From a virus (taxonomy: Duplodnaviria; Heunggongvirae; Uroviricota; Caudoviricetes), in IMG/VR virus record IMGVR_UViG_2690316149_000014, positions 1-17,767 of that record: a stretch of DNA of 17,767 bases, one strand, 5' to 3'. This document shows positions 1-15,234 of the stretch, piece after piece (the first letter of the stretch is position 1; every line of letters starts with the position of its first letter). The notes under the pieces were generated by a model. The model was not told the origin of the DNA. It did not search any database and saw only the letters and a program-made list of their open reading frames with translations. Made by a program: the position numbers and the translations under genes.

Positions 1-1248
1 ATGGCACTGAATATTCCATTCAGAAATGCGTACTATCGTTTTGCATCCAGTTACTCATTTCTCTTTTTTATTTCCTGGTCGCTGTGGTGGTCGTTATACG
101 CTATTTGGCTGAAAGGACATCTAGGGTTGACAGGGACGGAATTAGGTACACTTTATTCGGTCAACCAGTTTACCAGCATTCTATTTATGATGTTCTACGG
201 CATCGTTCAGGATAAACTCGGTCTGAAGAAACCGCTCATCTGGTGTATGAGTTTCATCCTGGTCTTGACCGGACCGTTTATGATTTACGTTTATGAACCG
301 TTACTGCAAAGCAATTTTTCTGTAGGTCTAATTCTGGGGGCGCTATTTTTTGGCTTGGGGTATCTGGCGGGATGCGGTTTGCTTGATAGCTTCACCGAAA
401 AAATGGCGCGAAATTTTCATTTCGAATATGGAACAGCGCGCGCCTGGGGATCTTTTGGCTATGCTATTGGCGCGTTCTTTGCCGGCATATTTTTTAGTAT
501 CAGTCCCCATATCAACTTCTGGTTGGTCTCGCTATTTGGCGCTGTATTTATGATGATCAACATGCGTTTTAAAGATAAGGATCACCAGTGCGTAGCGGCA
601 GATGCGGGAGGGGTAAAAAAAGAGGATTTTATCGCAGTTTTCAAGGATCGAAACTTCTGGGTTTTCGTCATATTTATTGTGGGGACGTGGTCTTTCTATA
701 ACATTTTTGATCAACAACTTTTTCCTGTCTTTTATGCAGGTTTATTCGAATCACACGATGTAGGAACGCGCCTGTATGGTTATCTCAACTCATTCCAGGT
801 GGTACTCGAAGCGCTGTGCATGGCGATTATTCCTTTCTTTGTGAATCGGGTAGGGCCAAAAAATGCATTACTTATCGGAGTTGTGATTATGGCGTTGCGT
901 ATCCTTTCCTGCGCGCTGTTCGTTAACCCCTGGATTATTTCATTAGTGAAGTTGTTACATGCCATTGAGGTTCCACTTTGTGTCATATCCGTCTTCAAAT
1001 ACAGCGTGGCAAACTTTGATAAGCGCCTGTCGTCGACGGTCTTTCTGATTGGTTTTCAAATTGCCAGTTCGCTTGGGATTGTGCTGCTTTCAACGCCGAC
1101 TGGGATACTCTTTGACCACGCAGGCTACCAGACAGTTTTCTTCGCAATTTCGGGTATTGTCTGCCTGATGTTGCTATTTGGCATTTTCTTCTTGAGTAAA
1201 AAACGCGAGCAAATAGTTATGGAAACGCCTGTACCTTCAGCAATATAG
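1..1248 (+). CDS. cscB: Sucrose:H+ symporter, LacY / oligosaccharide:H+ symporter family (CscB-like), 415 aa
   Basis: Full ORF from ATG at base 1 to TAG 1246-1248; polytopic hydrophobic profile typical of 12-TM MFS permeases; recalled similarity to LacY/CscB. Gene symbol rests on recalled identity, not a search. Confidence 0.8.
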   Translation: MALNIPFRNAYYRFASSYSFLFFISWSLWWSLYAIWLKGHLGLTGTELGTLYSVNQFTSILFMMFYGIVQDKLGLKKPLIWCMSFILVLTGPFMIYVYEPLLQSNFSVGLILGALFFGLGYLAGCGLLDSFTEKMARNFHFEYGTARAWGSFGYAIGAFFAGIFFSISPHINFWLVSLFGAVFMMINMRFKDKDHQCVAADAGGVKKEDFIAVFKDRNFWVFVIFIVGTWSFYNIFDQQLFPVFYAGLFESHDVGTRLYGYLNSFQVVLEALCMAIIPFFVNRVGPKNALLIGVVIMALRILSCALFVNPWIISLVKLLHAIEVPLCVISVFKYSVANFDKRLSSTVFLIGFQIASSLGIVLLSTPTGILFDHAGYQTVFFAISGIVCLMLLFGIFFLSKKREQIVMETPVPSAI

Positions 1249-1256
1249 ACGTAAAC

Positions 1257-1301
1257 TTTTTCCGGTTGTTGTCGATAGCTCTATATCCCTCAACCGGAAA
1301 A
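1257..1301. repeat. Perfect 11-bp inverted repeat (TTTTCCGGTTG ... CAACCGGAAAA) with ~23-nt spacer, 9 nt after the cscB stop
   Basis: Seen directly. No T-run follows the stem on either strand, so it is not a canonical intrinsic terminator. Confidence 0.6.
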
Positions 1302-1689
1302 TAATAATAGTAAAATGCTTAGCCCTGCTAATAATCGCCTAATCCAAACGCCTCATTCATGTTCTGGTACAGTCGCTCAAATGTACTTCAGATGCGCGGT
1401 TCGCTGATTTCCAGGACATTGTCGTCATTCAGTGACCTGTCCCGTGTATCACGGTCCTGCGAATTCATCAAGGAATGCATTGCGGAGTGAAGTATCGAGT
1501 CACGCCATATTTCGCTATCAGGATTCTGTGTGATGGTTACATCGCCCGGCTCAGGGCTGTTTAGTCATCAGCGCTTTCTGACAGTGCTGAGATTTCAACC
1601 TGTTGCAGTAAAAATGAGTAGATATAAGGCAAGTGTGCTGCCAAACCCATCTTTTACGGGGTGAAGGTAGATTTCGTTTGAAGGGTATC

Positions 1690-1704
1690 TGGTGTCCCCT
1701 GCAG
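1690..1704 (-). other. Attachment-site core (attR-like): 15-nt copy of the 3' end of tRNA-Arg argW (CTGCAGGGGACACCA on minus strand); chromosome/prophage boundary
   Basis: Plus strand reads TGGTGTCCCCTGCAG, the reverse complement of the recalled argW 3' end. Chromosomal gene (cscB) on the left, phage genes on the right. No intact tRNA is present. Confidence 0.6.
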
Positions 1705-1777
1705 ACATCTACTTGACGAGGCAGGGGATTGATTGGAATGGTGTTTTTTAGATATGAGAAATATTTTACCCGCTATT

Positions 1778-1978
1778 TTACCCATTGGCGCGGCTTAAGA
1801 GCTTATTTTTGAATTCACAATGGTCACGATATAACCATCTTGCTCGCCCGTGGATAACTTTGGCTTTAGGCAGGTCCCCGGACTTAATCCGGTCATAGAT
1901 GAAGGTTTTACCGAAGCCAGTATCGGCCATGATGAATTTCAAATCAACCAGTGAATCAGGCTGTAGTTCGTGTTGCAT
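1778..1978 (-). CDS. torI: Excisionase / recombination directionality factor, AlpA-TorI family, 66 aa
   Basis: 66-aa ORF 73 bp inside the att core; size and basic winged-helix-like sequence (…FGKTFIYDRIKSGDLPKAKVIHGRARW…) match recalled TorI of KplE1. GGAG about 10 nt upstream of the ATG. Confidence 0.7.
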   Translation of the reverse strand: MQHELQPDSLVDLKFIMADTGFGKTFIYDRIKSGDLPKAKVIHGRARWLYRDHCEFKNKLLSRANG

Positions 1979-1997
1979 GAGTGCTATCTCCGAATAG

Positions 1998-2013
1998 GGA
2001 ATCGAACCTGCAA
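1998..2013 (-). other. Second argW-derived block: 16-nt match to the tRNA-Arg T-arm (TTGCAGGTTCGATTCC), contiguous in the tRNA with the 1690-1704 block
   Basis: Plus strand GGAATCGAACCTGCAA is the reverse complement of recalled argW nt 45-60. Lies 20-35 nt upstream of the torI ATG. Confidence 0.55.
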
Positions 2014-2022
2014 ATCAGGCAA

Positions 2023-2044
2023 TAAAAAAACCGCATTGATGCGG
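2023..2044 (-). terminator. Putative intrinsic terminator (minus strand): CCGCA/TGCGG stem followed by a T8 run
   Basis: Plus strand shows A8 then CCGCATTGATGCGG; on the minus strand this is hairpin plus U-run, 60 nt after the stop of the 2104..2475 gene. Confidence 0.45.
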
Positions 2045-2103
2045 CAATGGCAGGTCTGGATATCTTGAGAAATGAACAGGCCTCATCGAGTGTGAGGCTG
2101 TGG

Positions 2104-11330: not shown

Positions 11331-12047
11331 TCAAACCAGTCTGAGTTTTGTCTCAATTGCAACGCCTATAATCTTGCAGTTTCCATTGATTGGCACGAGA
11401 GGCCATGCAGGATTAAGTCCCTTGAGGTATTTATTTCCGCCGTCGATTATCAGCTTCTTGAATGTTGCTTCGTTAGAGTCAGAAAGTTTTGCTATGACCA
11501 AGCTGCCGTTGATCGCCTCCCTTCCGGTATCGAAAAGAACGAATGTTCCCTCTGGAATGCTTAACCCAACCGGTGCCGTCATTGAATCACCTTCCACTTT
11601 AAGCCAGAACGCATTACCTTGAATATGCGCGTCAGACTCAAGCCAAACATCTATGTCTTTAATGGTGTATGGTTCGCATGCTTCACACCACGAGCCAGCC
11701 TGGATACTGCTTAACACCGGATACCTCTTTCCTGCTCTGTATTCCCCTGCATACCTTACGTTGGCATCGCTCTTAAGGCTTTCTGCCTGTTCTGCAACCT
11801 TGGCAGCAATTGACTGGCTAAAATCAGCAATTGAGACTTGCAACAATCGTGCAAAACCAGATGCAACCTCAACGTTTAGCGCGTTTCTGCCATTAAGATA
11901 ATGCCCTACCGCTCCTTGGGTGATACCCAGTTCATCAGCGATTGAGTATTGGGTTATTCCCAATTCTTTCTTTTTTGACTCATACAAAGCCTTAAGCCGC
12001 TTAGCGTCTTCGAGCTGTTCTGTCGTCAGTGATTTTTTATTTTCCAT
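11331..12047 (-). CDS. cI: CI-type prophage repressor: N-terminal XRE-family HTH plus C-terminal LexA/S24-like autocleavage domain, 238 aa
   Basis: HTH …QYSIADELGITQGAVGHYLNG…; C-terminal S24 signature …GDSM…/…KL…; no SD before the ATG (leaderless, as for lambda pRM); divergent from cro across an operator region. Confidence 0.9.
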   Translation of the reverse strand: MENKKSLTTEQLEDAKRLKALYESKKKELGITQYSIADELGITQGAVGHYLNGRNALNVEVASGFARLLQVSIADFSQSIAAKVAEQAESLKSDANVRYAGEYRAGKRYPVLSSIQAGSWCEACEPYTIKDIDVWLESDAHIQGNAFWLKVEGDSMTAPVGLSIPEGTFVLFDTGREAINGSLVIAKLSDSNEATFKKLIIDGGNKYLKGLNPAWPLVPINGNCKIIGVAIETKLRLV

Positions 12048-12456: not shown

Positions 12457-12735
12457 ATGCAACTTACAAGTACTCGCAAGAAAGCGAATGCAATTACAAG
12501 CAACATCCTGAATCGAATTGCTGTACGTGGTCAGCGAAAGGTTGCCGACGCGTTAGGGATTAATGAATCGCAAATTTCGCGATGGAAAGACAGCTTCATC
12601 CCAAAAATGGGAATGCTTCTGGCTGTTCTTGAATGGGGTGTTGAAGACGAGGAGTTGGCGGAACTGGCTAAGAAAGTAGCCAGAATGCTGACAAAAGAAA
12701 AAGCCCCGAAGAACGGCGAATTCTTCGAGGCCTGA
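12457..12735 (+). CDS. cII: CII transcriptional activator, 92 aa
   Basis: Recalled similarity to lambda CII (…SQISRWK…IPK..MLLAVLEWGV…); position right after cro/nutR. Confidence 0.85.
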   Translation: MQLTSTRKKANAITSNILNRIAVRGQRKVADALGINESQISRWKDSFIPKMGMLLAVLEWGVEDEELAELAKKVARMLTKEKAPKNGEFFEA

Positions 12736-13808: not shown

Positions 13809-15234
13809 TTTTTATGCGCCGCCCCATAGCATCGAGGCAGAGCAGGCGGTGATTGGTGGATTGCTTCTGGATGATGACAGCAGTGAGCGCGTCCAGAAAG
13901 TTCTGGCGATGCTGAAGCCTGATTCATTTTACAGCCGACCACACAAAATCCTTTTCGAAGAGATAACCAGAATGCACCGGGAGCAAAAGCCAGTAGATGG
14001 CCTGACGCTTTTCGATGAACTGGAGCGTAAATCGTTAACGGCGTCTGTTGGCGGTTTTGCTTATATCGCTGAGATCGCAAAGAACACGCCAAGCGCAGCA
14101 AACATCGTTGCCTATGCAATGCAGGTTCGCGAAACCGCAATGGAACGCTACGCCATCAACCGCATGACTGAAGCGACGGAATTGCTCTATTCCCGCAACG
14201 GAATGACTGCAACGCAGAAGTACGAAGCTATTCAGGCGATTTTCACGCAACTGACAGACCATGCAAAAACCGGATCGCGTCGCGGACTTCGCTCATTTGG
14301 TGAGGTCATGGAAGACTGGGTTAGCGACCTTGAGAAGCGTTTTGACCCGTCAGGCGAACAACGAGGAATGAGCACAGGGATCCCATCGCTGGACAGGATG
14401 CTGTCACCGAAAGGTCTGGTGAAAGGCTCTTTGTTTGTCATTGGCGCTCGCCCTAAGATGGGGAAAACGACGCTATACAGCCAGATGGCAATCAACTGCG
14501 CAGTGCATGAGAAAAAGCCCGCTCTGATGTTCAGCCTTGAAATGCCAGGTGACCAGATACTGGAAAAACTGGTAGGGCAAAAGTCAGGTGTTAACCCCAA
14601 TATTTTTTACCTTCCGGCGACAAATGACGCTGATGACGGCTATCAGGGTGATTACGATGGTGACTTCAACAGGGCGATCGAAACAGCTAATCGCTTGAGT
14701 GAAATCGACATGCTTTACATCGACGACACGCCGGGATTATCTCTGGCTCAAATCGTCAGCGAAAGCCGTCGAATCAAGCGAGAAAAAGGATGTGTTGGCA
14801 TGATTCTGGTCGATTACCTGACACTAATGACCGCTGAGAAGGCCGATCGCAACGACCTTGCTTACGGCATGATCACCAAAGGACTGAAGAACCTTGCCAA
14901 AGAGCTTGATTGCGTTGTTGTGCTTCTGACGCAGCTTAACCGCGCACTGGAAAGCCGAACCAATAAACGCCCATTACCAAGTGACTCACGAGATACAGGG
15001 CAGATTGAACAGGATTGCGATTATTGGGTTGGGATCCATCGTGAAGGCGCTTTTGATGACAGTGTTCCACCTGGTGAAACCGAACTAATCCTTCGTCTCA
15101 ATCGTCATGGCAATACCGGCACGGTGTATTGCATTCAGGCAAATGGCGCTATTTATGACACAGACCAACAGTCTGCTGAAATGCGCCGACGTGAACGCGA
15201 GGAACCGCAGTCCAAGAAGAAAGGAGGATTCTGA
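13798..15234 (+). CDS. Replicative DNA helicase, DnaB family, 479 aa from ATG 13798
   Basis: DnaB N-terminal signature PHSIEAEQAVIGGLLLD, Walker A GARPKMGKT, Walker B-like ILVDYLTLM; RBS GAGGGTG. The track ORF starts 15 nt earlier at a non-ATG codon. Confidence 0.9.
   Translation: MTDNFYAPPHSIEAEQAVIGGLLLDDDSSERVQKVLAMLKPDSFYSRPHKILFEEITRMHREQKPVDGLTLFDELERKSLTASVGGFAYIAEIAKNTPSAANIVAYAMQVRETAMERYAINRMTEATELLYSRNGMTATQKYEAIQAIFTQLTDHAKTGSRRGLRSFGEVMEDWVSDLEKRFDPSGEQRGMSTGIPSLDRMLSPKGLVKGSLFVIGARPKMGKTTLYSQMAINCAVHEKKPALMFSLEMPGDQILEKLVGQKSGVNPNIFYLPATNDADDGYQGDYDGDFNRAIETANRLSEIDMLYIDDTPGLSLAQIVSESRRIKREKGCVGMILVDYLTLMTAEKADRNDLAYGMITKGLKNLAKELDCVVVLLTQLNRALESRTNKRPLPSDSRDTGQIEQDCDYWVGIHREGAFDDSVPPGETELILRLNRHGNTGTVYCIQANGAIYDTDQQSAEMRRREREEPQSKKKGGF

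Follow-up and report, generated by a model that had tools for sequence, protein, structure and literature searches.

The leader of torI, the gene for the recombination directionality factor (RDF) of KplE1/HK620-type modules, carries a short box whose sequence is that of the argW T loop; in attB, this loop directly adjoins the crossover core on its left. In the window (the whole 17,767-nt stretch of viral DNA analysed here) this box belongs to a 16-nt exact match to argW, block 2, and a second match of 15 nt, block 1, is the attR copy of the core. On balance, we favour the view that block 2 is how a discrete box of the torI leader, GTTCGATTCC(C), appears in E. coli; the box is conserved in its own right, would be tRNA-derived, and would act in cis on TorI expression.

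The argW reference was taken from an empty site, that of E. coli STEC17-190 (locus L003, 1441-1515; gtcctcttagttaaatggatataacgagcccctcctaagggctaattgcaggttcgattcctgcaggggacacca). Compared to this authentic gene, both blocks given in the first-pass annotation match, and at this empty site they are present only as part of the tRNA itself. Block 1, CTGCAGGGGACACCA (minus strand, 1704 to 1690), is exactly argW nt 61-75, as had been claimed. Block 2, TTGCAGGTTCGATTCC (minus strand, 2013 to 1998), had been assigned to nt 45-60: the identity with the tRNA holds, and the numbering is off by one, the 16 nt being nt 46-61. The two blocks had also been described as contiguous in the tRNA, but they share C61 and overlap by one base. 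Chance does not account for them, in agreement with the earlier estimate: allowing 2 mismatches, block 1 is still the sole match in the window and block 2 is still unique (0.03 and 0.01 matches expected, respectively, from dinucleotide shuffles). With one mismatch allowed, the likeness of block 2 to argW reaches A44. The only other k-mer of at least 10 nt shared between argW and the window is one 10-mer (14120-14129), which is at chance level, and no tRNA gene was found in the window by ARAGORN. Between the blocks lie 293 bp (1705-1997; about 290 in the first-pass annotation) which hold the whole of torI with its Shine-Dalgarno sequence as well as the P arm of attP. As a description, the statement that in the phage att region the RDF gene is flanked on either side by argW homology is correct.

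On the attR side of the region, the features are the following:

1300..1689, minus strand: host flank on the csc side, identical to the sequence directly after argW at the empty site.
1642 to 1628, minus strand: terminator-like hairpin within this flank.
1690..1704, minus strand: attR copy of the KplE1/HK620 att core, CTGCAGGGGACACCA, equal to argW nt 61-75.
1705..1710, minus strand: putative Int core-type C half-site, AGATGT followed by C, beside the presumed 7-bp overlap TGCAGGG (both from conservation).
1721..1728, minus strand: P-arm inverted repeat TCCCCTGC, exact complement of GCAGGGGA in the core, conserved and compensated across relatives.
1764..1783, minus strand: two direct GGGTAAAA repeats directly after the torI stop, read as IntS arm-type sites (TAAA motif).
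1778..1978, minus strand: torI, recombination directionality factor of 66 aa, with a 100% identical protein at four genome loci.

The identity of block 1 is established: it is the crossover core that a recombination module of the KplE1/HK620/Sf6 type derived from argW, here in its attR copy. The core is the 3' end of argW and is followed by host sequence: after ...ACACCA the window reads gataccc ttcaaacgaaatc..., the same as the DNA 3' of argW at the empty site, which places the prophage/host junction at base 1690. The TorI-type RDF gene points toward the core, and TAAA arm-type repeats lie between them. The TAAA motif of the arm sites is known from KplE1 (PMC2951348), and the GGGTAAAA repeats are conserved in relatives. 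Among the four loci with identical TorI, three are named E. coli, and RefSeq calls the homologous gene of K-12 W3110 torI. As a side observation, a first-pass scan of viral contigs by TorI alignment returned E. coli copies with identical TorI only.

It is equally established that the module is part of a P22-like/lambdoid prophage sitting between argW and the csc genes. From 2045 to 1690 the window is 96-98% identical to HK620, Sf6, IME10, Kapi1, and others, and the attP core is annotated at the same position in the HK620 and Sf6 records. The remainder is the early region of such a prophage, with CI (11331-12047), a CII-like gene (12457-12735), and O and P genes. In strain AHM8C212RI, where the 1.2-kb junction is 98.6% identical, the prophage spans about 40 kb to argW-intS at its far end; the corresponding end of our prophage is outside this window. 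The first-pass annotation had remarked that there is no integrase at this end, which is right as a layout and carries no information, because attP lies between xis and int in the normal arrangement of KplE1/HK620 modules (PMC2951348, PMC8787464).

Core, torI, arm sites, and gene order thus follow textbook KplE1/HK620 and are already known. The module is like those of KplE1 (CPS-53), HK620, Sf6, CUS-3, and Kapi1 in its core sequence, 100% identical TorI, GGGTAAAA repeats, xis-attP-int order, and target tRNA (PMC2951348, PMC3509656, PMC8787464). It differs from KplE1 in the host flank and in the length of the direct repeat. A cscB-type sugar transporter (1-1248) opens the window, so here the csc sucrose locus abuts attB, and not dsdC as in K-12. 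The KplE1 core is 16 nt long (CTGCAGGGGACACCAT; PMC2951348), whereas the repeat is 15 bp here, and not 16-17 bp, because the host flank goes on with G and not T.

Block 2 has no place in this known picture. The KplE1 and Kapi1 papers define the att sites without it (PMC2951348, PMC3509656, PMC8787464), and about 190 bp separate it from the attR that is functional in vitro, a fragment of 135 bp starting at the 3' end of torI with primer CTCTTAAGCCGCGCCAATGG (PMC3509656). A T-loop-like box upstream of torI is unmentioned in these three papers, and a full-text sequence search came back empty; an earlier description elsewhere is possible.

We considered whether the two blocks could be halves of one site. 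The first-pass annotation had proposed, as one of two options, that torI was inserted into an ancestral 31-bp tRNA-derived core. With the corrected numbering, a contiguous attP of about 30 bp (argW nt 46-75) would have received a cassette of torI and the P arm at C61, leaving the halves 293 bp apart. The blocks are indeed colinear, in the same orientation, and jointly equal to argW nt 46-75, and the family consensus of block 2 resembles the tRNA along 16 nt, so that some tRNA or att origin is likely. Several observations nonetheless speak against the insertion and make it highly improbable. The blocks overlap at C61 instead of abutting, and the supposed insert would hold the entire functional P arm. 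Some modules do without block 2. In relatives, the core has a left half of its own: the position corresponding to 1705..1710 outside E. coli reads TTCGATGT, a degenerate T loop, and the sequence left of the core in other genera is (A/G)TTCGATGT(A/C/T)-TGCAGGGGAC, compared to GGTTCGATTCC-TGCAGGGGAC in the tRNA, so block 2 is a duplicate. Finally, IMG/VR yielded at least 120 matches to the contiguous 30-mer (argW 46-75); all 112 that could be evaluated are complete argW genes at prophage ends, with no partial phage copy among the matches listed.

The position of the box is best seen against the other elements of the torI leader:

1988..1991, minus strand: torI Shine-Dalgarno GGAG.
1997..2007, minus strand: conserved leader box GTTCGATTCCC, of which bases 1-10 equal argW nt 52-61 (the final G of the T stem, the T loop, and CC).
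1998..2013, minus strand: block 2, the 16-nt exact match to argW nt 46-61.
2010..2022, minus strand: TTGCctgatTTGC, annotated in HK620 as the cII site of a predicted 'integration' promoter, with N5 and not N6 spacing.
2024..2045, minus strand: intrinsic terminator (hairpin 2045 to 2030 plus T run), which ends the early-left gene block just 5' of the torI leader.

The box therefore sits between the early-left terminator and the torI ribosome-binding site, with its end 19 nt from the ATG. HK620, Sf6, and K-12 KplE1 carry block 2 in identical form. Among E. coli-type loci with identical TorI, the ten-base GTTCGATTCC is intact in 79 of 86, and the eleventh base (C) is also present in 72. To see beyond this lineage we collected RDF loci from genomes, viral contigs, and annotated phages, giving 71 unique leaders. 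The box is present with at most 2 mismatches in 45 of them and exact in 38 of those 45, and it is common to modules in Escherichia, Shigella, Salmonella, Citrobacter, Enterobacter, Serratia, Pantoea, Erwinia, and Edwardsiella. Where the box is present, it ends 18-20 nt from the ATG in 43 of 45 leaders. Box positions 0-10 (GTTCGATTCCC) are nearly invariant and both flanks vary, in a conservation table that is partly circular, since its leaders were chosen at no more than 2 mismatches to the box. The 6 nt between box and GGAG are variable (CTATTC, CAAACC, CAATCC, CTGTCC, CAGCAA, and others).

The family consensus, TT(C/G)CAG-GTTCGATTCC, agrees with argW nt 46-61 at 15 of 16 positions, and its upstream part, TT(C/G)CAG, at 5 of 6. 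In Serratia (L014) and Pantoea (L017) the box goes on as ...CCTG, like the tRNA, for 2 nt further 3'. The upstream match and this extension make a tRNA origin likely for a segment of about nt 46-63. All TorI-family modules found have argW-type cores as their target. We also looked for an argW variant with a TTCGAAT loop, and only a phage tRNA-Arg(TCT) cluster matched; in one locus (L116) no tRNA core was recognisable. More distant IntS relatives (YeP5, VW-6S, Kp4866-6, phiV10, and the F116 group) have a different gene layout or order.

Could the box be a functionless remnant of an att site or tRNA that is decaying, or a coincidence? Several lineages with an intact RDF do without it, so it is dispensable, and no structure, Rfam family, or promoter was detected in it. 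As an example, block 2 is missing despite an intact RDF and attP in Klebsiella phage Chronis, Erwinia phage Ehr49, L016, L018, L188, and L193-L200. In L016 and L188 the terminator tail ...TTATTGCCTG joins GAGATAA directly, in what looks like a 25-nt microhomology deletion. Against coincidence stands the exact 16-mer adjacent to the att core, which is far beyond chance; against decay stand the divergent modules. In Salmonella phage g341c, Erwinia phage phiEt88, L183, and L186 the box is identical at 11/11 positions and in register, with an RDF gene that has only 52-57% nucleotide identity to torI and a leader remainder that matches at 15-24 of 49 positions. Under neutrality, such identity would be expected with a probability of about 0.55^11, or 1e-3, per lineage, and it is seen in at least three lineages. 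Erwinia phage Midgardsormr38 even carries two tandem copies 16 bp apart. By comparison of these sequences, the box is an island of conservation and not the product of recent shared descent of the entire leader. Absence of function is distinctly unlikely, and the box is most probably an old tRNA- or att-derived copy kept by selection.

Known att sites offer a partial parallel. Phages that use tRNA genes bring the 3' part of their target, so that integration restores the gene, and the degenerate T loop beside the core is in keeping with the imperfect homology usually seen to the left of the crossover. What sets our case apart is a second, better-preserved copy of the T loop 300 bp off, outside the functional att site and within a gene leader. 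Such tRNA-derived identity blocks in attP go back to Reiter 1989, as cited in PMC8787464, and the preference for tRNA integration sites to Williams 2002, as cited in PMC2951348.

What the box does must be sought in a module whose excision switch rests on RDF expression in a way still to be understood (PMC2951348). We propose that the box affects TorI production in cis, TorI production being the step that would decide excision, and that it probably helps to control the timing of prophage excision. Several ways of doing so can be weighed against its conservation pattern.

The box contains the pentamer GTTCG, and TorI sites such as I1-I5 on attL have GTTCG, GATCG, or GTCCG cores (PMC2951348). A TorI operator in the leader, through which the RDF would regulate its own synthesis, could be suspected from this, and some lineages have a second GTTCG or GTCCG 12 bp on. 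The P' arms of the modules, however, are of two types, with GTTCG/GTTCT/GATCG repeats or with (A/G)TTACC or GTAACC (phiEt88, L183, L186, L190, and L192), and the box fails to covary with them: GTTCGATTCC is unchanged in four modules with (A/G)TTACC-type repeats (L113, L183, L186, and L190). The 10-11 nt conserved also exceed the roughly 7 nt common to the I sites, and the repeat spacing is 12 or 16 bp, compared to 10 or 20 bp on attL. We rejected the operator as the least probable of the readings considered.

The Int arm-type repeats vary as well, between GGGTAAAA and GCGGGCATAA, and phiEt88, L183, L186, and L190 have GGGCATAA arm sites instead of GGGTAAAA with the box kept. The box is thus unchanged across both P'-arm and Int arm-repeat types, which makes the arm-binding domain of Int irrelevant to the box. 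Constant alongside the box are the argW-type core and the machinery of the host. Another candidate reader is the core-binding domain. The box would then be a copy of the left (B) half-site of attB, bound by the core-binding domain of IntS, and would hold torI silent in the lysogen, with a possible bridge from the arm sites just past the torI stop codon. From the symmetry of the sites we infer a half-site layout of G(A/G)TGT(C/A) / TGCAGGG / GACACC. Most leaders match the tRNA up to the base where the identity of attP and attB and the presumed overlap TGCAGGG start (L014 and L017 go 2 nt further), and the box stays constant, as do core and target, while RDF and arm sites change. The module is found in very different phage backbones, and its own proteins are the only trans factors that move along with it. 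The integrase of KplE1/HK620-type modules is always present at a low level, and repression of a promoter through IntS bound to att DNA is already documented (PMC2951348).

Other observations do not fit a site for the integrase. The C half-site of E. coli, GTAGATGTC, functions although it lacks TTCG, and recognition of the full box by IntS is thus not required. The box also never drifts to the consensus that the other half-sites share, G(A/G)TGTC. The distance between box and core (303, 324, or 332 bp) shows no helical phasing. In lambda-type systems, B sites are usually weak alone. We therefore consider integrase binding at the box unlikely, and more doubtful its full form, in which a non-recombining copy of the attB left half-site, read by constitutive IntS and possibly looping out the 200-bp torI, would keep the excisionase silent.

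The only existing annotation of the box region is a predicted promoter, given in two phage records. In the HK620 record, both a promoter and a cII site are placed here, an annotation taken over in the Sf6 record. In lambda, pI is a cII-activated promoter that gives Int without Xis, and the HK620 annotators drew this analogy. Block 2 would then be the second TTGC repeat and the spacer between -35 and -10 of a cII-dependent integration promoter, with transcription running through attP into int. The position agrees, just upstream of or within the RDF gene and toward att and int, and the prophage in the window encodes a CII-like activator (match to phrog_191, E=2e-37). The second TTGC is 13 nt from TATTCG, which is also the distance in lambda pRE. 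The repeats themselves argue against such a promoter: they read TTGC-N5-TTGC here, and the single TTGC-N6-TTGC of the window is at the position expected for pRE, inside cII. About 25% of E. coli copies have TTAC in place of the first TTGC, and beyond the E. coli lineage neither the TTGC boxes nor the -10 element are conserved, the supposed spacer being what is kept. No sigma-70-like promoter scored within 1500-2600. A difference from lambda is that a dedicated int promoter lies on the P' arm in this module (PMC2951348). A pI-like role for block 2 is improbable.

The other possibility is that the box acts in RNA. Leader elements that occlude a Shine-Dalgarno sequence and translational operators that mimic a tRNA exist, e.g. 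in thrS. In transcripts that read through the terminator, the pyrimidine-rich leader, with UUCC of the box opposite GGAG, would mask the torI Shine-Dalgarno sequence and keep TorI low. The predicted pairing probability of the Shine-Dalgarno sequence is 0.85 in box-bearing and 0.53 in box-less leaders. Variants with ATTTCC give a perfect 6-bp pairing with GGAGAU, and UUCCUG of L014 can pair with CAGGAG. As in thrS-type operators, the box is a short, conserved, partly tRNA-like element directly 5' of the Shine-Dalgarno sequence that can pair with GGAG; unlike them, it has no conserved stem or covariation, is not known to bind a protein, and resembles the T loop and not the anticodon arm.

Shuffling the ten letters of the box lowers the predicted pairing only from 0.85 to 0.77, and leader folds show no extra stability over those of shuffled sequences (z -1.0 to +0.6). 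With so small an effect and such unremarkable folds, RNA masking leaves the fixation of all 10-11 positions unexplained. A structured element in the leader was also considered. The T stem is not conserved among 40 unique leaders, with 1-2 bp in most lineages and occasional 4-bp stems at chance rate. A tRNA-like RNA or T-arm hairpin was discarded, ARAGORN and Rfam being negative and the folds no better than those of shuffles. So was a leader colinear with the entire 3' end of the tRNA (GGAGAT against GGACAC), as its likeness is no more than the Shine-Dalgarno sequence accounts for. Patterns for Fis, IHF, sigma-54, sigma-E, the tor box, and complementarity to 16S, compared by eye, gave nothing convincing. 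Control of TorI synthesis at the RNA level thus comes first among the mechanisms as a leading but weak hypothesis. After it we rank a site for the integrase, then absence of function, then pI, and last a TorI operator; what is left of our expectation goes to something we have not considered.

If the box had no function, a known att core and a curiosity would remain. If, instead, it were read by the integrase, the same recognition would pick the tRNA target and lock the prophage in place, through a direct control circuit from integrase to RDF. To our knowledge, such a circuit is undescribed for the KplE1/HK620 module or for any tyrosine-integrase module. Williams reportedly sorted tRNA integration sites into sublocation classes. 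The identity of the box with the T loop of the target suggests either that regulation took over an old att copy or that both places are read by one factor. In either case, a sequence apparently derived from the tRNA or att site would have found a second use in a gene leader of a well-studied module, or at the least been kept there. Lying just 5' of the RDF ribosome-binding site, this 10-11-nt box is a concrete and mutable target for the question of how RDF expression is controlled.

Nearly all att variants (n=90 unique) carry an inverted repeat between the P arm, which separates torI from the argW-derived att core, and the core itself. In the window its two halves are:

1695–1702, minus strand: core segment GCAGGGGA, pairing exactly with P-arm TCCCCTGC
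1721–1728, minus strand: P-arm repeat TCCCCTGC, complementary to core GCAGGGGA at every base

A distance of 18 nt separates the repeat from its core partner in TorI-class modules; in the class of the Salmonella phage g341c it is 24 nt. Where the core varies, compensated pairs are found: GTAGGGGA occurs with CCCCCTAC or TCCCTTAC, and GCAGGGAA with ATCCCTGC. The P-arm repeat may serve as an additional Int core-type site; alternatively, it may give the torI 3' UTR a hairpin that resembles an acceptor stem and has a CACCA tail. The same region holds a putative coding sequence that spans arm sites and crosses the att core, so that phage and prophage would encode different C-termini for it:

1654–1785, minus strand: putative 43-aa ORF, homologous to HK620 hkaB and Sf6 gene 17 (phrog_18701)

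On the other side of torI, the leader box (a conserved T-loop-like box 19 nt before the torI ATG) varies in copy number. In Erwinia phage Midgardsormr38 (L005 1985–2015), CAGGTTCGATTCCC is present as a tandem pair, 16 bp apart, upstream of the excisionase gene. Box-less leaders, in which TTTTTTATTGCCTG is joined directly to GAGATAA, occur in comparison loci L016 (~2470–2500) and L188 and L193–L200 (~1470–1500). Their sequence fits the loss of 25 nt between CTGG microhomologies, a deletion that would have taken out the box alone.

Further upstream of torI, the minus strand of the window contains:

2024–2098 and 2462–2522: weak Rfam matches to isrK, a prophage sRNA family, coinciding with two hairpin-plus-terminator units
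2104–2475: 123-aa gene (phrog_1229) that carries hairpins of its own, an insertion separating the torI leader from the Eag gene
2466–2485 (read 2485 to 2466): terminator near-identical to the HK620 terminator directly before block 2 (window 1998–2013)

The terminator tail TTTTTTATTG occurs twice, in this terminator and in the one directly preceding block 2. Both isrK matches are sub-threshold (14 bits vs a gathering score of 50) and probably without meaning. The decamer CTGTTCATTT (~2076–2085, minus strand) agrees at 9 of 10 positions with CTGTTCATAT, the TorR tor box decamer, an agreement that chance would give about once in DNA of this length. It precedes the gene for TorI, the TorR inhibitor.

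The variable argW–dsdC island is filled by the csc locus in the window; a gene for an aminoimidazole riboside (fructo)kinase adjoins argW in related genomes.

1–1248, plus strand: cscB-type sucrose/oligosaccharide transporter, adjoining the argW flank (1300–1689)

TTGC-N6-TTGC occurs once in the window (12490–12503, minus strand), within the 5' part of the CII-like gene and on the opposite strand to it, the classical position of a lambda-type pRE.

Finally, two types of P'-arm repeat, GTTCG-like vs (A/G)TTACC-like, occupy the positions of TorI sites I1–I5, as seen by comparing the repeats of these loci:

L001: 2842–2960
L113 (phiEt88): 2296–2420
L183, L186, L190 and L192: from 1796

The two types imply a switch in the DNA specificity of the RDF within this module family, the core and leader box meanwhile staying unchanged.
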